DNA of 64,000 bases from a bacterium (GTDB taxonomy: Bacteria > UBA8248): contig OZ241875.1 of assembly GCA_965203325.1 (NCBI GenBank), positions 1,248,001 to 1,312,000 of the forward strand, in the 5' to 3' direction. The notes under the pieces were generated by a model. It did not search any database, had not been told where the DNA came from, and saw nothing but the letters and a program-made list of their open reading frames with translations. The translations under genes were made by a program, and so were the position numbers. This document shows positions 1,775 to 16,169 of this stretch, in pieces. Within the stretch, counting starts at the first letter, position 1. The number at the start of each line of letters is the position of its first letter.

Positions 1775-2587
1775 ATGGGTGCGATTGAGACAACAATACC
1801 ACGGGGGAGGCTCAAACTCGTAGCCGTACTCCGGAATAGCGGTGATGTCATTCAGATTGATGATGTTGTTTCTACACTTTCCATCGGGCGGCCAGAGGCC
1901 GCTAAATTACTCTCACGCTGGACAAGTCAGGGCTGGCTAAGACGGGTCGGTCCGGGAGTTTACATCGCTGCCCAGTTGGATTCGCTCGCAAGCGAACATG
2001 TCTTAGTTGACCCTTGGGTGCTCGTCCCCGCTTTGTATGCGCCTGCTTATATCGGGGGGTGGAGCGCTGCGGAACATTGGGACCTCACCGAGCAGTTGTT
2101 TCGACAAATTCTCGTCATGACCACTCAGACAGTTCGCGAGAAGTGCCAGATACGCCACGGAGCGCATTTCATGTTGCGCCACGTACAGGAGCGAAAACTC
2201 TTTGGCACCAAATCGCTTTGGCGTGGCCGGTCGAAAGTGTTGATTTCCGACGCTCATCGCACGATTGTCGACATGCTCGACGAGCCCTCCGTCGGTGGCG
2301 GGATTCAGCACGTAAGCGATTGTTTGGGCGCCTATCTGCGGCGCGTTGATCGAAACGACGATATGCTGATCAGCTACGCTGAAAGGCTAGGCAACGGCGC
2401 GGTCTTCAAGCGCCTCGGATTTCTGGCCGAGAAACATACCGCCGCGGAGGCTCTGGCCGATTCTTGCCGGATCCGGTTGACGGAGGGGAACGCCAAGCTC
2501 GACCCTGCATTGGAATGCTCCCGCCTGCTCTCAAAATGGCGTCTGTGGGTTCCCAAAAACTGGGGAACAGGAGTGGCAGATGATTGA
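1775..2587 (+). CDS. abiEi: Type IV toxin-antitoxin antitoxin, AbiEi family transcriptional regulator
   Basis: N-terminal wHTH (L..W...GWL.RV..GVY), YIGGWSAAEHWDLTEQ, SD..RTIVD, KRLGFL. Overlaps the start of the toxin gene. Confidence 0.85.
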   Translation: MGAIETTIPRGRLKLVAVLRNSGDVIQIDDVVSTLSIGRPEAAKLLSRWTSQGWLRRVGPGVYIAAQLDSLASEHVLVDPWVLVPALYAPAYIGGWSAAEHWDLTEQLFRQILVMTTQTVREKCQIRHGAHFMLRHVQERKLFGTKSLWRGRSKVLISDAHRTIVDMLDEPSVGGGIQHVSDCLGAYLRRVDRNDDMLISYAERLGNGAVFKRLGFLAEKHTAAEALADSCRIRLTEGNAKLDPALECSRLLSKWRLWVPKNWGTGVADD

Positions 2588-4031
2588 CAGGCGCGAGATC
2601 ATCGATGCGGCGACTGCTCTTGGGCTCAATCCACACGTCGTCGAGAAGGACTACGTTCTCGGATGGCTGTTATGGGGCATTTATAACAACGAGACAATCG
2701 GCAAAAATTGGATATTCAAGGGCGGCACCTGCCTGAAAAAATGCTTTTTCGAGACCTATCGGTTTTCCGAAGACCTCGACTTCACGCTCACCGATTCCGC
2801 ACACATCAATGAAAATTTCCTGCAAACTGTATTTGCGGAGATCAGTGAACGTATTTACGAGCAAACCGGGATCGAACTGCCGCTGGATTTCCAACAATTC
2901 GATATTCACACAAACCCCCAAGGCGGAGAATCCTGTTCAGGCAGGATAGGGTATCAGGGCCCGGTGTCGCCGCGCGGCCAAAACATGCCGCGAGTAAAAC
3001 TCGATCTAACAGCCGACGAGCGCGTGGTGCTACCACCGGTGCAATTACAGGTCTTTCATCCTTACAGCGATGTCCCCGAAGATGGCATTTTCATCCAATC
3101 CTACGTGTACGAGGAGGCGTTTGGTGAGAAGGTCAGGGCGCTCGCCGACCGTGCGCGACCCCGGGATTTATATGATGTGATCAACTTGTTCCGTAATGCC
3201 GAAGCACGGCCCACCGCCGCCGTCCTCTTCGATGTCCTTCTCCAGAAGTGCGAGTTCAAGAACATGGACTTTCCGGTTCTTGCTCATCTGGAACCGCACC
3301 GCCCTCTTCTTGAAGGTGGCTGGGACCAGATGCTAGCGCACCAGTTGCCCGCCCTGCCACAATTCGACACATTCTGGGACGAATTGCCGACTTTTTTGCA
3401 ATGGCTTGAAAGCGGTGTGGCACCGAAAGTTCCTGCTGCCTACGTCGGAGCGGTGGACGAGGAGACTATCCGTGAGCACACATTGCGCCTGCCAGTTTCC
3501 AGCAAGGTTCAGTCTTACCTCGAAATCATCCGTTTTGCTGCTTCAAACCTGCTTTGTGTCGACCTTCGCTATCAAGGCTCAACAAGGCGCATTGAACCCT
3601 ATTCACTTCGACGTACCAAGGAAGGCAATATCATACTACATGCCCACAACTTGAATAAAAACGAGCACCGCAGCTACCGAATCGATCGTATTCAAGGAGC
3701 GCAAGTAACTAACCAAACCTTCAAACCCCGGTTTGCGATTGAACTGACTCCCACCGGTCCGCTCGCTATTACTCCCACAGTGCACCTGGGTATATCACGG
3801 TCAATACGGGGCAGTAGGAAACTCACAAGAGCACCACGACACAGGTCGCGTCATGTCCGCCGAATGGGCAAATCCAATCGCTCGAGTGGACCAACCTTTG
3901 TTTATGAGTGCAGCTATTGTGGCAAACGGTTTTCACGCAAGAAGCGAACTCACTCGCTCAACCCGCACAAAAACAAAAATGGCTATCCTTGTCCCGGTCG
4001 ATACGCATACTGGGTGGACACACGGTATTAG
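2580..4031 (+). CDS. abiEii: AbiEii/AbiGii nucleotidyltransferase toxin fused to WYL domain and C-terminal Cys/His Zn-finger-like tail
   Basis: VEKDY, FKGGTCLKK, YRFSEDLDFT, EKVRAL..R..PRDLYD. Then LRY...RRIEPYSL...RSYRIDRIQ (WYL) and ECSYCG...H...C. Confidence 0.85.
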   Translation: MIDRREIIDAATALGLNPHVVEKDYVLGWLLWGIYNNETIGKNWIFKGGTCLKKCFFETYRFSEDLDFTLTDSAHINENFLQTVFAEISERIYEQTGIELPLDFQQFDIHTNPQGGESCSGRIGYQGPVSPRGQNMPRVKLDLTADERVVLPPVQLQVFHPYSDVPEDGIFIQSYVYEEAFGEKVRALADRARPRDLYDVINLFRNAEARPTAAVLFDVLLQKCEFKNMDFPVLAHLEPHRPLLEGGWDQMLAHQLPALPQFDTFWDELPTFLQWLESGVAPKVPAAYVGAVDEETIREHTLRLPVSSKVQSYLEIIRFAASNLLCVDLRYQGSTRRIEPYSLRRTKEGNIILHAHNLNKNEHRSYRIDRIQGAQVTNQTFKPRFAIELTPTGPLAITPTVHLGISRSIRGSRKLTRAPRHRSRHVRRMGKSNRSSGPTFVYECSYCGKRFSRKKRTHSLNPHKNKNGYPCPGRYAYWVDTRY

Positions 4032-4043
4032 AAGGTAATAGAT

Positions 4044-5567
4044 GTGCGAATACTTCATATTTTTCCTGACACGAATCTGTTCATTCAGTGTCGCCCTTTA
4101 CATGAACTCGACTGGTCCAAATGGGCTGAGTTCGACGAGGTTCATCTGCTTGTCTGCCGCCCGGTTCAGCGTGAAATCGACAATCAGAAAGCTAGGGGAA
4201 ACGATCGTGTCGGCACAAAAGCACGCTCAACTTACAAATTGTTTCGAGAAATCATCCTCAGCGAGCAAGACTATAAGTTAATTCAGGAAGCAAAGCCTCG
4301 TATCAAGTTGCTTCTAGCAGTATCCTACTTGCCCAATCCCAAGCTTGCGGACAACCTCGATTACAATAAAGTCGATGATGAGATTGTCGGTTGTGTCCAT
4401 ACCTATAGGGAGCAGAACCCGGGTTTTGATGTGCAACTGCTCACCCACGACAGTGGGCCAATGACGAGTGCAAAAATGCTTTCTCTGCCATTTACTCCGA
4501 TTCCGGACGACTGGTTGCTTCAACCGGAAAACAGCCGTGCCGAGCGGGAAAATCAACAACTGAAAGAAGAGTTAGCGCGACTTAAAAAGACTGAGCCTCA
4601 TTTCACTATTTATTGTCTCAACGAAGAAAAGAATGAAACCGACTCTTTGGTATTTGAGTGGCCAGTTTATAAACCACTAGCTGAGGAGAAAATCTCCAGA
4701 TACATGGATTCGTTGAAAGCGCGGTTTCCGCTGGCCACGGATTTCGGGCCGAGAGAGTCGATGGAGCGTGCAGCCTCGGGAATGATGGATAGGTTTTTAG
4801 GTGTGAAAGAAGTGTTTACACCTGCATCAGATGAAAAAATAACTGCTTACACAGAAACGGATTACCCAGCATGGGTCGAACAATGTGAGAAGATTCTGCG
4901 CCATCTTCATATTTTGAAGCAAGAAGCCCATACGGAAATTTTTACATTTTCTGCATTGAATGAAGGGACCAGACCTGGAAAGGATGCTCTGATAACGATC
5001 TCGGCAAAAGGCAACTTTAAAATCAGACCACCCCAGGTGAAAGACACCGATGAAGATGAAAGCAGGCAAGATGATTCAGAGGAAATGCAATCACTTCCTC
5101 TGCCACCAAAACCGCCAGAAGGTACATGGGCCACATTAAAAAATTTTCTTCACCCGCACGGTCTAACCCGTTTTTCCGCTGGCCGTAGCGCGCTTGCTGG
5201 CTCAGAGTCGTTACATCATATTCCTCCTCTTGGCCATTCAAATTTTCGGCGTGATCCAAATAAGTTTTATTATAAGTCCGGTCGCTCCGTTATGCCTGTA
5301 GCATCGTTCAGCCTCGAATGTGAACAGTGGCGTCATGGTACAGACGCAGAATATTTTGAAGGCGAGTTCTATCTTGATCAGAACACTCACGAAATTAGTG
5401 GTGCTCTCGAATGTCAAATCCACGCAGAAAACCTTTCAGCTCCCGCCAAGAAAATAGTTCCAGTAAGAGGCACAGCCAGAACTGCAAGTATTTGTAAGCG
5501 TGCGAACACGCTGATTGAAGACCTGTTAAACCGTGCAGATCGACTCGGGTTCAAATCACTTCAATAA
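4044..5567 (+). CDS. PIN-domain protein with coiled coil and uncharacterised C-terminal domain
   Basis: FPDTNLF...VQREID...DDEIV...LLTHD acidic PIN tetrad. GTG start with AGAAGG upstream. Confidence 0.7.
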   Translation: MRILHIFPDTNLFIQCRPLHELDWSKWAEFDEVHLLVCRPVQREIDNQKARGNDRVGTKARSTYKLFREIILSEQDYKLIQEAKPRIKLLLAVSYLPNPKLADNLDYNKVDDEIVGCVHTYREQNPGFDVQLLTHDSGPMTSAKMLSLPFTPIPDDWLLQPENSRAERENQQLKEELARLKKTEPHFTIYCLNEEKNETDSLVFEWPVYKPLAEEKISRYMDSLKARFPLATDFGPRESMERAASGMMDRFLGVKEVFTPASDEKITAYTETDYPAWVEQCEKILRHLHILKQEAHTEIFTFSALNEGTRPGKDALITISAKGNFKIRPPQVKDTDEDESRQDDSEEMQSLPLPPKPPEGTWATLKNFLHPHGLTRFSAGRSALAGSESLHHIPPLGHSNFRRDPNKFYYKSGRSVMPVASFSLECEQWRHGTDAEYFEGEFYLDQNTHEISGALECQIHAENLSAPAKKIVPVRGTARTASICKRANTLIEDLLNRADRLGFKSLQ

Positions 5568-7947: not shown

Positions 7948-8112
7948 GGCCTATACATCGGAGAAAGCTGGGGCGGGTAGCGACCAAATATTTACTATAT
8001 TCTAACACTCCGCTTAAAACTATCTCCCCCCCTAAAAATCGGACTCCAGTATCCACTCGACTGTGCCCAGGCGTTCGCCGATGTAGGCCCCACCACCCGT
8101 CACCATATAAAG

Positions 8113-8276
8113 ATTACCCATGTGCCTAGACGACGCTAGAATACGAGTACACTGTCCGATGTTCGTCACGTACTCAGGCCAAGGTACACATGGCTCTCTT
8201 CGAGTTCATCGAAGACCACTACAACCTGAAACACCGATGTTCCGTCCTGAACTGTCTTGCCCCCAACGACTCCTAG
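8113..8276 (+). pseudogene. IS3-family transposase C-terminal remnant
   Basis: Translates as ...MALFEFIEDHYNLKHRCSVLNCLAPND*, matching the IS3 OrfB tail FEYIE.FYN..R.HS.L.Y.SP. Confidence 0.6.
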
Positions 8277-8710
8277 TGGACCGCGCCGCGAATGCCACCA
8301 AAGAGGCTGAGCACAAACTTACGTTTCACTGCACTGACGTATTACCCCAAGCAAATCGTTGCAGTCTGGACTTTGGAGGATACTTCTGACACGGGTAAAC
8401 ATTCAGTCGTGAGGGTATCGCGGTAAAGAAAGAAATGGCCCAAACCGACCACGCCGTGCAATAATAACAATCGCTCCGGCATCCGCGAAGTACTTCACCC
8501 CACGGTTTAACGCTTTCCGACAGAGATGCTCTAAGATACGTGGGAGTTATATTTCATCCGCATCCGTTTTGATTACGTACTGCAGAAACCGAGTCCCCAA
8601 CGAAACTCGCAAAATAGAAATACCTGCAATATTTTCAACAAACTCCAAGCATCCCACCGCCGCTGAAAATCCCCCACCCTCTCTATACACGCGGGAGAGC
8701 GGGATGCGCG

Positions 8711-8731
8711 CCCCCTCCCGCCGGGAGGGGG
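8711..8731. terminator. GC hairpin/palindrome downstream of autotransporter
   Basis: CCCCCTCCCG-C-CGGGAGGGGG. No clear U-tract. Confidence 0.3.
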
Positions 8732-8785
8732 ACCGCGATGAAGCGGGCCGGGAGGGACGGCCTGCGCTTCCCCGTGGGTCCGTCC

Positions 8786-11209
8786 CTACCACCGCTTCGA
8801 GCCGCGCAGCAGTAGGCCGCCTTCTGGTCTCCCGCCGCCCGCCTGTTCGGTGAGCCTCGCCTCGAGGCTCACCTCCGTGGCCGCCCCGGGCTTCCAGCGC
8901 GCGCCCGCGCGCCAGGTCTCCGCGTTCCCCGAGACCGCAACGCCCGTATAGGGCGTCAGCAGACCGCGCGGGGCGTCCAGGCCCCAGGCCGCCTCGGCCT
9001 CGAAGCCAGCGGCGCCCGGCTCGAACCCACCGCCCGGCGAGAGGCCCGCCGCCTGCGACCAGAGCCGCTCCGCACCGCCGGCGGAGGCGCCCCACGAGGA
9101 GCCCGCCCGAAGCGTGAGGCCGCGTCCCCCGGAGCCCGGAGCGTACGCCACCGAGGCGCTCACGCCCCATTCCTCATAACCGCCCTCGCCGTGGGAGAGC
9201 AGGCCGCGCGCGCGCACCTGCGTCGTCAGGGCACCCGAGGTCCAGCGGACAGAGCCGCCGGCCTCCACCCCGCCGCCCGTCTCCGCGTCGCCCGAATCGT
9301 TCCGGAACCCTATCTCCAGCGAGGGCGTCAGCACCGCATCGCCGAACCTGAGCGAGCGCGAACCCTCCAGCACGAGGCGCACGCGGCTCGTCTCCGCCTC
9401 GGTCTCCGCCAGGCCCGCCGCAGCGTCCGAGCGCGTGTTCGTCACCAGGACGTCCGCGCGGAGCGCGAGCTCGAACCCGCCCGCCTCGCGCGCGGGCAGA
9501 ACGACCCCGCGCGCCCCGGCCGCCGCCATGCCCATTGCCACGTCGGCCTCCACCGGGGACGACCCCCCGGGCGTGAGCGTCATCTCCCCCTGCCCATGGC
9601 CCACCGCGCCCCAGAGCGAGAACGTCCCGCTCACACGGTAGCGCGCGTAGGGGTAGACACCCGTAAGCGTGCTCTCCACCTCGCCCGCGCAGCCCGCCTC
9701 GCACGCGCCGCCCGCCTTGTACGAGCCGTCGCCCGCGCTTCGCGAGAGCGCCACGCCCACCAGCCAGCGCGCCCGCTCGTAGTCGAAGCCCACGGTCGCC
9801 GTCGTCACGTCGCCCTCGAGCGAGAGATCGCCCTCGGCGCCCTCGAACGAGGAGCGCGCGCCCCGGCCCCAAAGCGACCAGCGCCCCCCCGGCGCGTCCC
9901 CGCCGCCGGCCGAGGCCATGTGAAACGAACTCGCGAGCAGGAGCTCGGACATCGCGACCTCGCGCACCGAAGGCGCCTGCGCCTCCTCACCGCGCCCGAG
10001 CCGGGCCTCCCTCTCCTTGAGGAGGGCCTCGGCGAGGCGCGACTCGATGGCCTCGCGCTCCGCCCCGCCCGTGAGGCTGTGGCCGCCCAGCACGACGCCC
10101 GCGGCGCCGCCGCCCGACAGGCGTCCTTCAATCGCCCCGGCGACGTGGCCCGCCGCCGCGCGCCCGAAGCGCGCGAGCCACATCCTTTGCAGCGGGTCGT
10201 CGTTGCGAATCACCCCCTTCGCCTGGCGGTGAATCCCCCGCAGATACGCACCCCGGGGGTTCGACAGCTTGAGCTTGAACGTCTCCTTGCCCTCGTCGAT
10301 GGCGTCGTCGAGCAGCGGCACCGAGACCGTCTTCGCCGTCTCGCCCGCCGCGAAGGTCAGCGTGCCCGACGTGGCCGTGTAGTCCTCACCCGCCGCCGCC
10401 GTGCCGTCCTCGGTCGCGTAGTCCACCGAGACCGTGTGCGCCGCCGCGCGGTTGAGCGTCACCGCGAAGTCCAGCGATGCGTCCCTGCCTTCCTTCGCCC
10501 GCGCGTCCTTGACCCGGATGCGCACCGGGCCGCCTATGGTCATACTCGACGTGTTCGTGAGCGTCCTTCCGTCGGCCGTGCACACCGCGCCCGCCGCGCC
10601 GCAGGCGCGCCCGCCCGCAAGCGTCACCGTCATGTCCTTCCACGACTTCGGCGCGACGCGCACCCGCCACAGGCCGGACGCCACCCTGCGCACGTCCTTG
10701 ACCCTGCCGCCCTGCACGGCGAAAGAGGCTGCAGCCGGGGCGCTCGCGGTCTCGCCCAGCGCCTCGCTGAAGCGCACCTCCAGCGCGAACGCCGCCTTGC
10801 CGTCATGCTCTTCCGGCGCTCCCTCGAACGCCGCCGTCAGCGGCTCCGACGCCTGCTGCTGCGCCACCTGCTGCCGCGCCGGCTCCGGCGCCGCCTCGCG
10901 CGTCACCGTCACCGTGTAGGTGCGCGTGTAGCGCGCGTCCGGCGCCGTCACCACCACCACGATGGTATTCTTCCCCACGGCCAGCGCCACCGGCGTCGAC
11001 GGGTCGCCGCCGTTCACCGTCACCCGCGCATTCGGGTTCTCGGGGCTCGCGTTCACCGTGACCTCGGTCACGTCGTGGGCCACCGTCGCGCTGTAGGTCT
11101 CGCGGTCCGGGTCGAACGCACCGTCCAGGCTCACCTGCCCGGCCCCGGCGCCCGTCGCCATGCACAACGCCGCCGACAGCAGCACCGCAATCCGTACCAT
11201 CTTCTTCAT
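8786..11209 (-). CDS. Autotransporter-like adhesin: signal peptide, cadherin-like beta-sandwich, Calx-beta, C-terminal beta-barrel
   Basis: AFDPDRETYSATV...VGKNTIVVVVTA...YTVTVTR. VDYATEDGTAAAGEDY...GTLTF...DDAIDEGKETF (Calx-beta). WSLWGRG..., amphipathic strands, terminal W. Confidence 0.8.
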   Translation of the reverse strand: MKKMVRIAVLLSAALCMATGAGAGQVSLDGAFDPDRETYSATVAHDVTEVTVNASPENPNARVTVNGGDPSTPVALAVGKNTIVVVVTAPDARYTRTYTVTVTREAAPEPARQQVAQQQASEPLTAAFEGAPEEHDGKAAFALEVRFSEALGETASAPAAASFAVQGGRVKDVRRVASGLWRVRVAPKSWKDMTVTLAGGRACGAAGAVCTADGRTLTNTSSMTIGGPVRIRVKDARAKEGRDASLDFAVTLNRAAAHTVSVDYATEDGTAAAGEDYTATSGTLTFAAGETAKTVSVPLLDDAIDEGKETFKLKLSNPRGAYLRGIHRQAKGVIRNDDPLQRMWLARFGRAAAGHVAGAIEGRLSGGGAAGVVLGGHSLTGGAEREAIESRLAEALLKEREARLGRGEEAQAPSVREVAMSELLLASSFHMASAGGGDAPGGRWSLWGRGARSSFEGAEGDLSLEGDVTTATVGFDYERARWLVGVALSRSAGDGSYKAGGACEAGCAGEVESTLTGVYPYARYRVSGTFSLWGAVGHGQGEMTLTPGGSSPVEADVAMGMAAAGARGVVLPAREAGGFELALRADVLVTNTRSDAAAGLAETEAETSRVRLVLEGSRSLRFGDAVLTPSLEIGFRNDSGDAETGGGVEAGGSVRWTSGALTTQVRARGLLSHGEGGYEEWGVSASVAYAPGSGGRGLTLRAGSSWGASAGGAERLWSQAAGLSPGGGFEPGAAGFEAEAAWGLDAPRGLLTPYTGVAVSGNAETWRAGARWKPGAATEVSLEARLTEQAGGGRPEGGLLLRGSKRW

Positions 11210-11223
11210 CGGACATGCCCCCC

Positions 11224-13983
11224 TTAATTGCCGGAATTCAAGTCAAGCGCCCGCAGGCGGGCGTTCGCCGCGTCGACGATCACGATCCCGACCGTGGACG
11301 GTGAGCCCGGCGCCACGCCCGGCGGCAGGTCCGGCTGGATCACCGCCACCTGGAAGCGCTCGTCGTCCGTGTCGTCGTCCTCGTGGGTCCTGATCGTGCA
11401 CGTCCCGCTCGTCGCGCCGGCGGCGATCGTGATGCTCCTGACGAACCCGTGGTCGGCCGTCTCCGACGTGACCCACCTCACCCTGAGCGGGATCTCCACG
11501 TCGTTCGCCAGCGGCTTCGTCAGGGCCACCTGCAACTCCACCGGCGAGCCCTCGGCCACCGTGCGGCGCACCGCCCGCAGCGTCACCTCCGGCAAGTCGG
11601 TGAGGTCCTTGATCCTCACCTGCACCGAGGCCGGGCGGCCCGCCCGCACCCCCGGCGGCAGGCTGGTTGTGTCCAGCGCCACCGTGAAGGTCTCGTCGTC
11701 GAGGTCGCTGTCCGGGTGCGTCGGGATATTGACGACGCCGCAGCTGGTCTGGAGCCAGCCGCTGATGGCGATGGTGTACGCCGTGCTGATCGGCAGGCGG
11801 CCGTCCGTGTCGCCCGACAGCGACACCCCCCAGTCGCCGTCCTCCGAGGTCCCGTGGCTCAGCGTCACCGGAATGCGCACGGTGCCCTGCGGCACCGCCG
11901 ACAGGCACGCCTCCACGCTCGCCGACGCGCCCTCGTTCACCGGGTTCGGGCTGACGGAGAGCTTCACCGTGGAGGAAGTGAGCGTCCCCAGGCTCACCGG
12001 CACGGATTGGCCGACGGTCCAGCTCGGGGGCGTTTCGCCCTGGTTGGAATAGGCCCAGCTCGCGATGACACCCTCGTAGCCCGGGCCCGTGGACAGAACG
12101 GCGTCTGCGATACGGAACCGGCTGTCGCCAACGTTCAGCACAAGGCCCCACTTGCGGTCCAGGGCCTTGTCCAGGTGGAAGAGGAGAAAGCCGCCGATGT
12201 TCGTGAGCCGGAGACCGAGGATCCTGTAATCGACCCCGCCGTAGGTGAAGTCGGCGTCAGAAAGCGCTCCAACAGTTGGTGCGGCTCGAAAGCCCTTCCA
12301 TTTTCCTCCGTCTCCTACCGTCATGGTGCCGGAGACGGCGGTCGTCACCTTCGCCGGGAGCGCCTGCCGCGTGACGGTGACGGTGTAGTCCTTGGTCGTC
12401 GTCGTGTCCTCGGCCGTCACCCGCACCGTGATCGCGTTCACGCCCACGCCGAGCGCGATCGCCGAACTCGCCGAGCCGCTCGTCACCGCCGTGAAATTGC
12501 CCGACGTCCCCTTGCGCACCCCCACCGTCGCCTTGCCGGTGTCGGCCACCGTGGGCGTCAGCTTCACATGCGTCCGGTCGTTCGCCACCGTCGCCGTGTA
12601 GGTCGTCGTCGACGCCCCGAAGGTGCCGATGCTGAAATCCGTGTATTGGCCGCCCGAACTCGTGGCGCTGCCCGCCGTCAGGCCGCTCAGGTCCGCGTTC
12701 GTGGACAGGGTCTGCACCGCCGCCCGCCGCGTGACGGTGACCGTGTAGTCCTTGGTCGTCGTCGTGTCTTCGGCCGTCACCCGCACCACGAGCGTGTTCG
12801 CGCCCACGTCGAGCGCGATCGCCGAACTCGCCGAGCCGCTCGTCACCGGCGTGAAACTGCCCTGGCCCTTGCGCACCCCCACCGACGCCTTGCCGGTGTC
12901 CGCCACCGTCGGCGTCAGCTTCACATGCGTCTGGTCGTTCGCCACCGACGCCGTGTAGGTCGTCGTCGTCGCCCCGAAGGTGCCGATGCTGAAATTCGTG
13001 TATTGGCCCCCCGAACTCGTGCTGCTGCCCGCAGTGAGCGCGCTCAGGTCCGCGTTCGTGGACAGGGTCGGCGTGCTGCCCTGCCCGCAGGAGCTCTGGA
13101 TGCTGAGGGAGACCTCGTCGCCGGCGGACCACGTCAGCCCGGTACTGCTCCAATTGATGGTCCCAGACGTAGCGCCCGACAGCGCAAGCGCGGTCGAGCC
13201 GACGCAGAAATTGAGGGCCCTATGCGTAGTAGTGAGACCCGAATTGAGCGTAAGACGTGAGTTGCCGCTGCTGAAGACCTGGATGCCAACGATGCTGCGA
13301 GTATTACCGTCACCCCCGGGAAAGTCATCGTCCGAGAGCGTGGCGGCGGTCGAGCACTTTTGTGCGGCAGCGGTAGCGGCATTCAAGCAACCGAATCCAA
13401 ACCCGGTTGGAAGCTGCTTCACCGTCAGCGTCGCCGACCAGACGGCCGTGCTGGAGGGCGCGCTGGGCGTCGCCGTCACGAAAGAGGTCCAGGCGCTTGC
13501 CGTATGCCCTGAGTGAGGTCTCGCCTGGACCCGAAACCGGTAGGTCGTGTTGTTCGTGAGGCCCGTGATGGTGACGGTTCTGTTTGCGGTGACGGCAACG
13601 TTCTGCGTCGACAAGGTGCCGCTCGGATGCTCTCCGTAGGCCACTGTGTAACCGCCACGATGATTGGTGATACCTGACCAGGTCAGCGTCACTTGCGCGT
13701 CTCCGGCCTGCGCCTGGAGATTCGTTGGCGTAGCAAGCGAGTGCGTGGCCTCGGCCGGCGCGGGGGCGAACAGGCCGAGCGCGCCGAGCAGCAGCGCGAG
13801 GACGGGGAGGAGGAGGGAGAGGCGGCGGGCGCGGGCGCGCCCGGTGCGGGCGTCAGGCCGTCCGGAGTCCACCGATGTCGGGGAAGCCGGTTCGCGCGCC
13901 CCGGCCGGGCGCACTTCACGCCGCCGGGCCGCGCTGCAGAACGCCGCCGCGAGCAGCATCGAAATCCGTGCAATGTTCTTCAT
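11224..13983 (-). CDS. Large secreted adhesin-like protein: FN3, two cadherin-like beta-sandwich repeats, Calx-beta-like domains, no barrel
   Basis: Start placed at MKNIARIS (13983) after a GGGGG RBS. PTNLQA.AGD.QVTLTW...GLTNNTTYRFRV (FN3). Two STNADLS.L...DYTVTVTR repeats. Confidence 0.8.
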   Translation of the reverse strand: MKNIARISMLLAAAFCSAARRREVRPAGAREPASPTSVDSGRPDARTGRARARRLSLLLPVLALLLGALGLFAPAPAEATHSLATPTNLQAQAGDAQVTLTWSGITNHRGGYTVAYGEHPSGTLSTQNVAVTANRTVTITGLTNNTTYRFRVQARPHSGHTASAWTSFVTATPSAPSSTAVWSATLTVKQLPTGFGFGCLNAATAAAQKCSTAATLSDDDFPGGDGNTRSIVGIQVFSSGNSRLTLNSGLTTTHRALNFCVGSTALALSGATSGTINWSSTGLTWSAGDEVSLSIQSSCGQGSTPTLSTNADLSALTAGSSTSSGGQYTNFSIGTFGATTTTYTASVANDQTHVKLTPTVADTGKASVGVRKGQGSFTPVTSGSASSAIALDVGANTLVVRVTAEDTTTTKDYTVTVTRRAAVQTLSTNADLSGLTAGSATSSGGQYTDFSIGTFGASTTTYTATVANDRTHVKLTPTVADTGKATVGVRKGTSGNFTAVTSGSASSAIALGVGVNAITVRVTAEDTTTTKDYTVTVTRQALPAKVTTAVSGTMTVGDGGKWKGFRAAPTVGALSDADFTYGGVDYRILGLRLTNIGGFLLFHLDKALDRKWGLVLNVGDSRFRIADAVLSTGPGYEGVIASWAYSNQGETPPSWTVGQSVPVSLGTLTSSTVKLSVSPNPVNEGASASVEACLSAVPQGTVRIPVTLSHGTSEDGDWGVSLSGDTDGRLPISTAYTIAISGWLQTSCGVVNIPTHPDSDLDDETFTVALDTTSLPPGVRAGRPASVQVRIKDLTDLPEVTLRAVRRTVAEGSPVELQVALTKPLANDVEIPLRVRWVTSETADHGFVRSITIAAGATSGTCTIRTHEDDDTDDERFQVAVIQPDLPPGVAPGSPSTVGIVIVDAANARLRALDLNSGN
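12366..13070 (-). repeat. Intragenic tandem duplication (about 357-360 bp period) encoding two cadherin-like domains
   Basis: GTGACGGTGA at 12371 and 12731, with near-identical sequence throughout. Confidence 0.9.
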
Positions 13984-14088
13984 TTGGAATGCCCCCTGTT
14001 CCGTGATTTCGGGTTCAAGCTGACGCAACCGGTCTTTCCGCGAGAGGCGGATTCCTGCGGTATGCGCCGCCTCGAACCCGGGCTGGTG

Positions 14089-14110
14089 TCCGCTAATTGC
14101 CGTTATTGGC
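14089..14110. other. Lox-like recombination site A-left
   Basis: TCCGCTAA-TTGCCG-TTATTGGC. Spacer is the reverse complement of the A-right spacer. Confidence 0.75.
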
Positions 14111-14281
14111 CCCCAGAAGCCCCGTTTTCCACCGAAAAACCCGTTTCGGGGGGCATTCGGGCCGCAAATGAGCGAAAAATGAGCGAAAAAAGGCGCGAAA
14201 CGGCGCCCGAAACCCCTCCGGGGACCCCGGAATTGCGCTTGACATGGCCGTGAGAGGTGTTTAACTTTCCGATAACGGCAA
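14097..14281. promoter_or_regulatory. Putative 185-bp invertible promoter segment (locus A)
   Basis: Flanked by inverted sites. TTGACA 14239-14244, 17 bp, TAACTT 14262-14267, pointing away from the adhesin. Homologous to 60428-60612. Confidence 0.75.
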
Positions 14282-14289
14282 TTATCGGA
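14268..14289. other. Lox-like recombination site A-right
   Basis: TCCGATAA-CGGCAA-TTATCGGA: perfect 8-bp inverted arms around a 6-bp asymmetric spacer. Confidence 0.8.
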
Positions 14290-14443
14290 CTCCAGAAACC
14301 CGCCGTTTCGCCGGTATCCCCCTGCGAAACGGCTTTTTTTATTGGAAATCCCCCGTCGTCGTCCATACTTGGTAATCAAGGAGGCGCTTGAGTGGCCTCA
14401 AGCAATGGACACGGCCGCCGACCCGGAAGGTTGGCTTCTCGGC

Positions 14444-14606
14444 ATGACGACGGGGGCAAGACCATCCGACCCGACGCTCAGGGGATTCGAGCGTTGGGGC
14501 AACCCCGAGACCGACGCCGGGATAGCGGCGTAACTGGGGGAACTCTACGAGGGGGGGACACTCGGCGGCCGTGGCCGCGATGGCGAGGCTTCGCTACGGG
14601 CAGTGA
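14444..14606 (+). pseudogene. Internally deleted relic of the Cre-like recombinase at 60807-61730
   Basis: Keeps MTT start, LR.FER.G.PETDAG.AA(Y to stop)LG.LYEGG and terminal ARLRYG.*. The catalytic domain is missing. Confidence 0.85.
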
Positions 14607-14649
14607 GGTCCGCCGCGTGCAGGACGCCCGTCTTCTCCCGAATATCTCT

Positions 14650-15369
14650 CTACCGCCTCTTCTTTCTCCGGGCGGCTCTCTCCTCGGACGTGGAAGTCCA
14701 CCTCCGCGCGGAGGCCCACTTCTCGAGGTCTTCGAGCAGGTAGCGCACCCGGTATCCGATGCGAAGAAAATCCGGCCCCTCGCCGCTCACGCGGTAGCGC
14801 TCCAGCGTCTTGGGCGAGAGGCCGAGCCAGGCGGCCGCCTCCCGCGTGTTCAGGTGGTTCTCCTCCGCGCGCTCATCGACGTCTCCCGCGGCCCCGGGTT
14901 CCCCGGCGGCGTCCCACGTCCCGTCGAACGGATCGGGCAAGTCCGCGAGCCTCCCGCGTATGGCGCGGACCTCCTCTCGGGTCGCGTTGGCCGCCATCCA
15001 GGCGCGCACCCGGTCGAAGGTCTTGAGATACGGCGAGGCGCCCCGGCGCAGCCTTCCCACGAAAGAGGGGTTCCCCACGGTCTCCTCGCCCAGGATCGAG
15101 ACCTTGGTCCCGCTCACCGCGAGAAACGCCTCGACCTCGGCCCGCAGGAGCGGTCCCAGGGGCGGATACCCCATGAACGCGAGCACCCGGTCCGCCGTGT
15201 CGACCCGCAGGGGCCGCCCCCGGGCGTGCAGTCCCACGAAGCCGGGAATCCCCAGCGCGCCCACCCCGAAGCGCCTCGCGCTCATCCCGCGGCGCGCGCG
15301 CCAGAGCGCAATGCTCCGGCGCAGCCGCTCGTCCAGCGGGGCGCCGGTATCGTCGTCGAACGCGGTCAT
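14650..15369 (-). CDS. DNA-binding protein: two Cro-like HTH repeats plus C-terminal excisionase/AlpA-like HTH
   Basis: MSARRFG...T.DRV.AFM and ...GNPSFV.RLRRG.SP...T.DRVRAWM repeats. LNTREAAAWLGLSPKTLERYR..GEGPDF.RIG.RVRY..EDL..W. Confidence 0.75.
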   Translation of the reverse strand: MTAFDDDTGAPLDERLRRSIALWRARRGMSARRFGVGALGIPGFVGLHARGRPLRVDTADRVLAFMGYPPLGPLLRAEVEAFLAVSGTKVSILGEETVGNPSFVGRLRRGASPYLKTFDRVRAWMAANATREEVRAIRGRLADLPDPFDGTWDAAGEPGAAGDVDERAEENHLNTREAAAWLGLSPKTLERYRVSGEGPDFLRIGYRVRYLLEDLEKWASARRWTSTSEERAARRKKRR

Positions 15370-16169
15370 GGCGCGCGAACATAAGGAAAGGACGAGCGCC
15401 CGTTCAATCGTTGTCTCTAGCGCGGAAGGTACACCCGGGAAGAGTCCGCGACCGCTCCCGAGAGCGGGTCGCTCATCGGTTCAGCCTGAAATCACGGGGG
15501 TTTTCCGGAAAACGAGGGTCGCCGGAGAACGTGCGGCGAGGCGCTGCGGAAAAAAAGGAAGGACACCGCCCCCCGGGCGAGAGCTCGAAAGCCTCTTTCG
15601 TTCACGCCGCAGTGGGCTGTTTCGCGAGTCGTCCCTGCGAATGACCGGCGATTGGCGGCGCCCGGCGAGTTGCATCTCGACCGGAGAAGCCCCTGCCGCG
15701 GCAAGGCGCTGCGCGCTGCCCGTCCGCAGGTCGAAACGGCGCCGATTCCCTTGTTTCATTCGTTTTTATCGCATCGTATGCTGATGTTCCGGGTCGTCCG
15801 CCAAATACAATACGGCCAAGCCGAAATAGGCGGACATTCCTTCGTGGATTGTATGCCAACGGCCCGGATTCTGGAGGAAATAAAAAATATTCGGCCGGGC
15901 AGGCGGGGCGCAGCAATGCCTCCGCCTACCCGGCCTGCCACCCCGGTAATCATTCTCTCATGGGGTGATGAGCATCAAAAATTCGCCGACCCGAATCGGA
16001 TACGCCGTGCCATACGAACAACTGCCTCTGAGCCTTGTGGTATTATCACCCTGCCAACGAACGATTACCCGCTCTTCGACGACTCGCGCCCCCTGGGATG
16101 CTTTGGGGTTGTAATGAGTCCGCTTGCGTTTTGATTACATTTATTTCAAGGAATTTATAACTGGCTTAA

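Follow-up and report, generated by a model that had tools for sequence, protein, structure and literature searches.

How can a protein domain be completed when its first strand is encoded at the end of one gene and the remainder at the start of the next? Two neighbouring genes raise this question in a 64,000-nucleotide stretch of contig OZ241875.1 (assembly GCA_965203325.1; hereafter, the window): read by sequence and Pfam, a Cadherin-like beta sandwich domain (CLD; PF12733) is split between an upstream gene, the donor, whose protein has neither barrel nor anchor, and a downstream gene, the anchor, whose protein ends in a predicted outer-membrane barrel. Based on sequence comparison and structure models, we consider it rather probable that this conserved split serves to attach an exchangeable protein without a barrel to an anchor in the outer membrane, through donor-strand complementation. 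The first-pass annotation of this DNA, which placed the split at 10905-11275, correctly spanned both the junction and the acceptor domain.

All coordinates below are positions in the window, and both genes lie on the minus strand; the host genome (G000) is a single contig of 4.39 Mb and 95% complete. The features on which the argument relies, with their basis in brackets, are these:

11224-13983, minus strand: donor gene, 919 aa counted from MKNIARI, ending NARLRALDLNSGN before the stop (open reading frame, ORF; Pfam)
13023-13833, minus strand: N-terminal hypervariable "tip" region of the donor (limits approximate, from 150-nt windows)
11269-11604, minus strand: last, Calx-like domain of the donor, which together with the tail is the donor chain of the complex prediction
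11227-11268, minus strand: donor tail ANARLRALDLNSGN, read as strand A of a CLD (consensus, ranking of C-termini, predicted interface)
11224-11226, minus strand: TAA stop codon of the donor gene (sequence)
11210-11223, minus strand: 14-nt spacer with a GGGGGG ribosome-binding site at 11218-11223 (sequence)
8786-11209, minus strand: anchor or acceptor gene, 807 aa (ORF, Pfam, structure prediction)
11141-11209, minus strand: anchor signal peptide MKKMVRIAVLLSAALCMATGAGA (sequence; probable cleavage after AGA, judged from the sequence)
10892-11140, minus strand: acceptor CLD without strand A, anchor residues 24-106 (Pfam, models, covariation)
10250-10480, minus strand: Calx-beta domain of the anchor, residues 244-320 (Pfam, PDB sequence match)
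8789-9883, minus strand: predicted outer-membrane beta-barrel, anchor residues about 443-807 (AlphaFold2, Foldseek, VIA-align)

The donor protein opens with a long, two-part signal region (MKNIARISMLLAAAFCSAA ... RRLSLLLPVLALLLGALGLFAPAPAEA) and an fn3 domain; behind an unassigned domain come two complete CLD repeats (87.9 bits to PF12733), then a further unassigned region, a pair of Calx-like domains, and the tail. It ends ...VGIVIVDAANARLRALDLNSGN (in wider context, ...VIVDAANARLRALDLNSGN), followed by TAA. We compared this end with the start of ordinary CLDs. A whole-library search returned multi-repeat CLD proteins, which served for consensus and covariation only; from these, 1266 contiguous CLD repeats were cut, each with the 14 preceding residues, and aligned. 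The consensus start of these repeats is [DN]-A-x-L-x-x-L-x-[LVI]-S-x-G-x-L-x-P-x-F, and the tail, N-A-R-L-R-A-L-D-L-N-S-G-N, fills consensus positions 1-13 with 6/6 of the conserved ones matched. As a test against chance, the strand-A position matrix was scored on the C-termini of all 10,332 stop-to-stop frames of at least 150 aa in the genome: the three copies of the tail rank 1, 2, and 3 (17.3-17.8 bits), the next best C-terminus reaches 13.6 bits, and the background has a mean of -18.5 and a standard deviation of 7.3 bits. By its sequence, then, the donor tail is strand A of a Cadherin-like domain, and the observation in the first-pass annotation that the upstream protein ends like the first strand of its own repeats is upheld by both the six key positions and the ranking.

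The complementary part of the domain is found at the other side of the junction. The anchor protein begins MKKMVRIAVLLSAALCMATGAGAG, then QVSLDGAFDPDRETYSATV...YTVTVTR; n-, h-, and c-regions of a signal peptide can be read in its N-terminus, and directly behind them GQVSLDGAFDPDRETYSATV...YTVTVTR enters the CLD at Pfam profile position 8 of 89. PF12733 matches anchor residues 30-105 with 71.3 bits (cut-off 24.2), in agreement with the earlier description of the downstream protein as a signal peptide followed by a CLD minus its first strand; the anchor chain holds no complete CLD that includes the first strand, [DN]-A-x-L-x-x-L-x-[LVI]-S-x-G. Since the tail occupies consensus positions 1-13 and the anchor continues the consensus with S-L-D-G-A-F right after its signal peptide, the domain is cut in the turn between strands A and A', and the stop codon, ribosome site, start codon, and signal peptide all lie inside this cut. 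The anchor ATG is at 11207-11209; counted between first bases, it lies 17 nt from the stop, which puts the two ORFs in different frames. The first-pass annotation had already argued from a clean stop, ribosome-binding site, and signal peptide that the genes are not separated by a simple frameshift; TAA, GGGGGG, and ATG could each be placed, and the length of the gap varies between junctions. Rfam had no match to window 8000-15500 (E up to 0.1). We also noted a cysteine in the hydrophobic core of the anchor signal peptide (Cys16, 11162-11164; ..AALC.. or ..AAFC..), which is kept in nearly all homologues read and which, by eye, does not lie in a canonical lipobox (LSAALC).

The first-pass annotation had suggested looking for the split in homologous operons. 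We examined 11 junctions (three in this genome, five in genome G041, one in genome G042, and two on metagenome contigs, L089 and L090) and found the split at all of them: in 11/11, 11-20 nt separate the end of the upstream ORF from the start of a gene whose protein has a signal peptide and a CLD lacking strand A. Likewise in 11/11, the tail is kept as N at column 4, then L-x-x-L-x-[LM], with a stop 3-6 residues on. It takes four forms, each followed directly by the stop: NARLRALDL(N.)GN, N[ED]RL[RG][QR]LELEIGQ, NDALERLYLRFRSSP, and NTLLAVLEMRTSPQ. Seven of the 11 junctions have the same Calx-like end and the first of these forms (class I). At two others (L036 in G042, and L037 in G041, which shares its genome with four class I junctions), the upstream protein has a different last domain, ending ...YRFFIQHNTAWES-ANERLRQLELEIGQ (class II; with the wider context, ...AWESANERLRQLELEIGQ or ...ANDRLGRLELEIGQ). 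The two metagenome contigs carry relatives of the class II last domain that end NDALERLYLRFRSSP (L089) and NTLLAVLEMRTSPQ (L090). Across the four classes, the identity of the acceptor CLD falls to 54-65%.

The conserved end is joined to quite different proteins. The N-terminal parts of the upstream proteins are entirely different between loci, and the upstream proteins at L036 (about 880 aa, fn3-rich) and L037 (377 aa) have only their last ~150 aa and the tail in common. In this genome, there are three such gene pairs, whose DNA identity is about 95% but drops to about 50% in an N-terminal block of ~800 nt. Since the last domain and the tail are shared and the N-termini differ, the donors read as a conserved adaptor and tail that carry variable front parts, and for the same reason several donors could serve one anchor type. 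The suggestion in the first-pass annotation of exchangeable tips on a membrane anchor fits these sequences, in which the same tail occurs on at least two unrelated upstream proteins.

The constraint on the tail looks to be at the peptide level, judging from codon comparisons. Of 14 codons compared between class I and class II tails, three are identical, five differ synonymously, and six differ non-synonymously (25/42 nt identity); the two classes keep 8/14 codon positions (seven residues and the stop), five of them through synonymous change. Column 12 is encoded by TTG, CTC, CTG, or ATG, and it is Pro, with the stop lost, in seven leader remnants (described below) in which the stretch is no C-terminus. 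Twelve homologues of the anchor were read, and all of the short ones with a complete N-terminus (10/12) start with a signal peptide and then a CLD that lacks strand A; when short proteins were searched with the 89-aa acceptor, there were three matches, too few to align. The protein collection also contains proteins of 840-910 aa that share this N-terminus and have different barrels.

A complex prediction of the C-terminal tail with the first anchor domain, as proposed in the first-pass annotation, bears on how the two would dock. Acceptor residues 24-112 were modelled with the last donor domain plus tail (126 aa), alongside three controls. The prediction passed with an ipSAE of 0.68 (0.67, 0.68, and 0.69 in the separate runs), compared to 0.00 for the best of the three controls; the pass mark is reached by 116/157 solved complexes and 2/215 mismatched pairs, counts that apply only roughly here, with alignments of our own supplied. 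Contacts agree between runs to at least 91%, with a partner pLDDT of 74 or more. In the predicted interface, the donor touches the acceptor through its tail only (residues 110-126, plus 15 and 17), opposite acceptor residues 26-35 and 60-79; the tail runs antiparallel to acceptor strand 27-34, and L117 and L120 lie against core residues 62, 64, and 75.

Covariation within intact domains gives a register that is independent of the complex prediction. In a mean-field analysis of the 1266 contiguous CLD repeats (Meff 1001), acceptor residue 34 is linked to strand-A columns 4 and 6 by the pairs ranked 1 and 2 in the whole domain; further pairs join column 9 to 32, columns 11 and 13 to 30, column 13 to 28, and column 14 to 27, while L10 is coupled to residues 62 and 77, and L12 to 18 and 29. 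In the trans complex, donor residues 116-118 contact 34, 119 contacts 32, 120-122 contact 30, and 122-123 contact 28 and 27. Thus, the docking register of the modelled complex is the same as the native strand-A register from covariation, and the proposal of attachment by beta-strand complementation gains support, computational in kind, from the complex pass and from this register. At the contact positions in ordinary CLDs, charges are rare and opposite charges are enriched. Opposite charges occupy covariation-supported pairs in 3/4 classes of the split modules (R6-E34 in class I; E8-R32 and R13-D30 in L089; R13-D30 in L090); with four classes, this pairing is anecdotal and only a hint.

The anchor itself is organized as a signal peptide, the CLD without strand A, a Q-rich linker, an unassigned domain, the Calx-beta domain, a helical linker, and about 365 C-terminal residues that end in KRW. 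An AlphaFold2 model of this last part is a closed, all-beta barrel with about 18 strands, a provisional number at the pLDDT of 70. PF03797 (Autotransporter beta-domain) has no match in the last 404 aa of the anchor at E up to 10, and a precomputed match to it is present in 6 of the 120 homologues listed. In Foldseek, the barrel model matches the beta-domains of BrkA, EspP, and NalP with a probability of 1.00, and also TonB-dependent receptors and LptD. In VIA-align, BrkA has a Z of 14.7, and CymA (17.1) and FadL, OmpG, and TamA (about 15.7), which are 14- and 16-strand barrels, score higher, all within about 2.5 Z. A search of PDB sequences with a profile returned Calx-beta domains only and left the barrel unmatched. 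Since PF03797 is absent and VIA-align cannot separate these barrels, we call the anchor autotransporter-like, not a proven type Va protein.

These elements suggest how the pair might work. The donor would be exported by its own signal peptide, without a membrane anchor and with strand A as its C-terminus, while the anchor would be held in the outer membrane by its C-terminal barrel, and removal of its signal peptide would leave the CLD minus strand A at its N-terminus. In the most likely arrangement, the tail would then form an edge strand that runs antiparallel to acceptor strand 27-34 and packs L117 and L120 into the core. The sandwich would be completed and the donor tied non-covalently to the tip of an anchored stalk, which would be donor-strand complementation in trans, and several donors could use one anchor type. 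That donor and anchor bind in the cell, and where they would meet, we infer. There is also a slight chance that the donor is a second passenger exported in trans by the barrel protein: the joined pair would thread C-to-N through the unusually large predicted barrel (about 18 strands), and the polarity is right for continued threading, because a C-terminal donor strand would meet the acceptor domain, which is N-terminal in the passenger of the anchor and exported last. If true, trans export would be a new branch of type V secretion, in which a split passenger is joined by one shared beta-sandwich.

The junction has relatives at the DNA level, which bear on how the tail is to be read. Seven long genes (one at window 13984-14200, minus strand, and six at other places in the genome) have a conserved leader of at least 140 nt followed by MKNIARISMLLAAAFCSAA, and in these genes MKNIARISMLLAAAFCSAA is fused before a second complete signal region (RRREVRPAGAR...RRLSLLLPVLALLLGAL). 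The DNA at the junction is similar to these 5' leaders together with the first 19 codons of the seven paralogues (nhmmer E 3e-12 to 2e-14), the match of the leader profile beginning 55 nt before the ATG, and the leaders can be read in frame as DRLRQLEPEI[ST]EQGAFQ-M. Judged by sequence, they are better read as remnants of a class II junction in which the stop was lost and the third hydrophobic position is now Pro, fused in front of genes with their own signal peptide. Because these leaders look like junction remnants, the junction appears to be recombinogenic and a portable 5' module. The converse idea that the tail is a translated 5' leader of paralogous genes was dropped, since the same tail ends real and differing upstream ORFs in other genomes. 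Other ideas were set aside as well: an origin by microhomology from "...PLTARLRGA..." in a fused paralogue has no advantage over the other readings, and an internal promoter at the invariant CTTGA lacks a plausible -10 at the right spacing (examined by eye only).

Several observations weigh against the view that the tail serves to attach the donor, and they have to be set beside its rivals. The acceptor domain alone, modelled by AlphaFold2 from a 21-row alignment of locus references, folds with six strands and a pLDDT of 85.7 (in Foldseek, this model had no match at E up to 0.001). What the complex pass shows is fit, not binding: the two chains are halves of one domain type, such halves tend to pass, and the pass may draw on what the model knows of whole CLDs. 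Against the generic strand-A matrix, the class II, L089, and L090 tails reach only 5.2 to -7.3 bits. The codons AAC (column 4) and CTT (column 10) are invariant in 11/11 junctions and 7/7 leaders, and since they never vary, part of the conservation of the tail may lie at the DNA level or come from recent spread. Between the three copies, the donor has a dN/dS of 0.67-1.09 (anchor, 0.30-0.37; passenger of two fused paralogues, 0.33), which indicates either relaxed constraint or diversifying selection on the donor. In G041, the open frames of two of the five anchor copies are cut short, at 357 and 292 aa. Finally, no route for the donor over the outer membrane is evident: there are no secretion genes among the neighbours of the gene pair, and a secretin is absent from this genome (95% complete) and from G041, while G042 has three, so that a type II route is not general (2/3 module-carrying genomes lack a secretin). 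PF03865 (ShlB/TpsB) has no match in the genome, and the control genomes gave none either.

Much of this would be expected if the split were a relic of gene fission, which we consider unlikely. An ancestral autotransporter-like gene would have been cut in the A/A' loop; the anchor would work alone with a six-strand domain, the tail would be idle, and the upstream protein would be a periplasmic or decaying leftover. A self-folding acceptor, the high donor dN/dS, the missing export route, the multi-copy state of the module within a mobile or defence island (AbiE, PIN, HTH_17), and the fused paralogues in the same genome are all in keeping with this. However, the cut, the adjacency of the genes, and the hydrophobic pattern persist in four divergent classes in spite of the low acceptor identity; the three donor frames (919-999 codons) contain no stop or frameshift in any copy despite about 5% divergence, and unrelated N-terminal parts are joined to the same adaptor and tail. 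Two observations that the first-pass annotation had named as telling against complementation were each made in part. The acceptor does fold alone, but a predictor will fold a sandwich minus its edge strand, and single-ORF paralogues do occur in the same genome, but these carry a generic CLD; both are indecisive. Specifically, the long single-ORF paralogues (1160-1864 aa) run from a Calx domain straight into a complete CLD (...ILNDEAHLDGLSVEG...KLDLGAFAAETTAYAVTV) that is of a different, generic type and not of the acceptor type. If instead the ~100-nt junction (the tail stretch, the ribosome site, and 19 signal-peptide codons) were a portable expression or recombination module, the strand-like tail would be its by-product. 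The similarity of the seven leaders to the junction and the invariant AAC and CTT codons speak for such a cassette, as do the 3-5 copies per genome, found also outside the class of this genome in a way that suggests transfer, and the tyrosine recombinase that adjoins one locus (L037). We nevertheless regard this reading as improbable. Against it stands the 6/6 fit to the strand-A consensus, right beside the one domain without strand A; the patterned positions carry synonymous and conservative changes, and the tails of L089 and L090 have diverged in DNA yet keep the pattern and the early stop. Moreover, the pattern is broken (L to P, stop lost) in 7/7 leaders that are not C-termini, although these seven are not independent, and the window copy has no neighbouring recombinase.

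Almost no probability attaches to recoding, by which frameshifting or bypass would make one chain of both ORFs and for which gene adjacency alone speaks. Gaps between stop and start of 11, 12, 13, 14, and 20 nt give the relative frame all three values, and this variable spacing rules out a single recoded chain, in which, moreover, the signal peptide would sit inside the protein. Contigs from four public runs (three studies) cover the locus, single contigs span the junction (for example, a 151-nt contig across 11166-11316 from a run labelled sponge metagenome), and they vary by 1-3-nt indels in the spacer and in the N-S codons; in none of these contigs are the donor and anchor frames joined. 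The runs listed for the junction include none of RNA.

The distribution of the module points to movement between genomes. Among 40 relatives and all 51 genomes of the same class, the form with a signal peptide and a strandless CLD occurs in no other genome, and the closest matches among the 40 relatives all lie within long single ORFs. We observed a module with 85-87% protein identity to the window copy in G041 (L033-L037, L085-L088), which is not among the 51 genomes of the class. A multi-copy module of such identity in a genome outside these 51 suggests horizontal spread, which would also apply to L036 in G042. Beside the class II gene pair of L037, an ORF of the Phage_integrase family (tyrosine recombinase; L037 1784-2794, minus strand) lies divergently. 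A recombinase-driven shufflon was rejected, since this ORF occurs beside L037 only and has no counterpart at the window pair; the divergent window ORF at 14392-15384 has no Pfam match. The window neighbours of the gene pair are AbiE, WYL, and PIN genes, an HTH_17 gene, and metabolic genes; at 1775-5567 (plus strand), there is an AbiEi/AbiEii toxin-antitoxin pair, the AbiEii with an additional WYL domain, followed by a PIN-domain protein. From these gene contents, the adhesin pair looks to be flanked by a defence or mobile island. Elsewhere in the genome, we noted a barrel-only copy of the anchor family (L009; G000:C1 about 2532711-2534408), which is joined in frame to a preceding stretch that may be the end of a transposase. 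A near-identical repeat occurs at about 20 loci of G000 on both strands (e.g. C1:1712311 and C1:2364583; one frame reads ...GQDAAPPEGDGAGSLLCIEDARLRGLRAQGRLSVEVPHE...) and is probably an insertion sequence or other dispersed repeat.

If the pair does bind by donor-strand complementation, the locus would encode a large surface adhesin that could be varied by swapping the upstream gene while the anchor is kept, in line with loci that differ mainly in the donor N-terminus. It would also pose a sharp question for type V secretion, namely how the partner crosses the outer membrane, and would provide a natural 13-residue tag and 83-residue socket for protein display. A full-text literature search, in the portions of text it returned, yielded reviews and unrelated work only, and no description of strand complementation that hangs a separate barrel-less protein on an autotransporter-like anchor.

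The closest parallels are found among pili that are built by strand exchange. In chaperone-usher pili (Fim, Pap, Caf1), the C-terminal G strand of the subunit is missing and is donated by an N-terminal extension, a periplasmic chaperone and an usher take part, and the subunits polymerise. The pair described here resembles them in that an Ig-like sandwich lacks one strand that would be filled from another polypeptide, in a modular, non-covalent yet stable way and with exchangeable tip adhesins. In contrast, it is the N-terminal A strand that is missing here, the donor is a C-terminal tail, and docking would be one-to-one onto a barrel-anchored protein; there are no chaperone or usher genes among the neighbours of the gene pair, to which the search was confined. 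Type V pili gain their groove by proteolysis, which removes a strand from a lipoprotein precursor, and their subunits polymerise. As in these pili, the C-terminal strand of one protein would here fill the place of the missing N-terminal strand of the next, as far as the predicted complex and covariation indicate. The comparison is with the type V pili of Bacteroidota (FimA/Mfa1), which are the subject of PMC13655056 and PMC5954841. Unlike their subunits, the acceptor here is encoded without the strand and would be exposed by removal of a signal peptide in which no canonical lipobox is seen by eye; no polymer is implied, and the donors have complete internal domains.

The anchor and donor also share traits with type V secretion systems. 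Like type Va autotransporters, the anchor joins a beta-sandwich passenger behind a putative signal peptide to a helical linker and a predicted outer-membrane barrel at the C-terminus, with an aromatic last residue, and the long two-part signal regions of the donors are like those of large type V passengers. Unlike type Va proteins, part of the "passenger" is a separate polypeptide, PF03797 is lacking, and about 18 strands are modelled (at the pLDDT of 70) compared to 12. As in two-partner secretion (TPS; type Vb), a passenger-like protein and a barrel protein are made from separate, adjacent genes. Here, however, the donor has no TPS domain, and the barrel protein has no POTRA domain and carries a passenger of its own, such that the link between the two partners is the split domain that they share.

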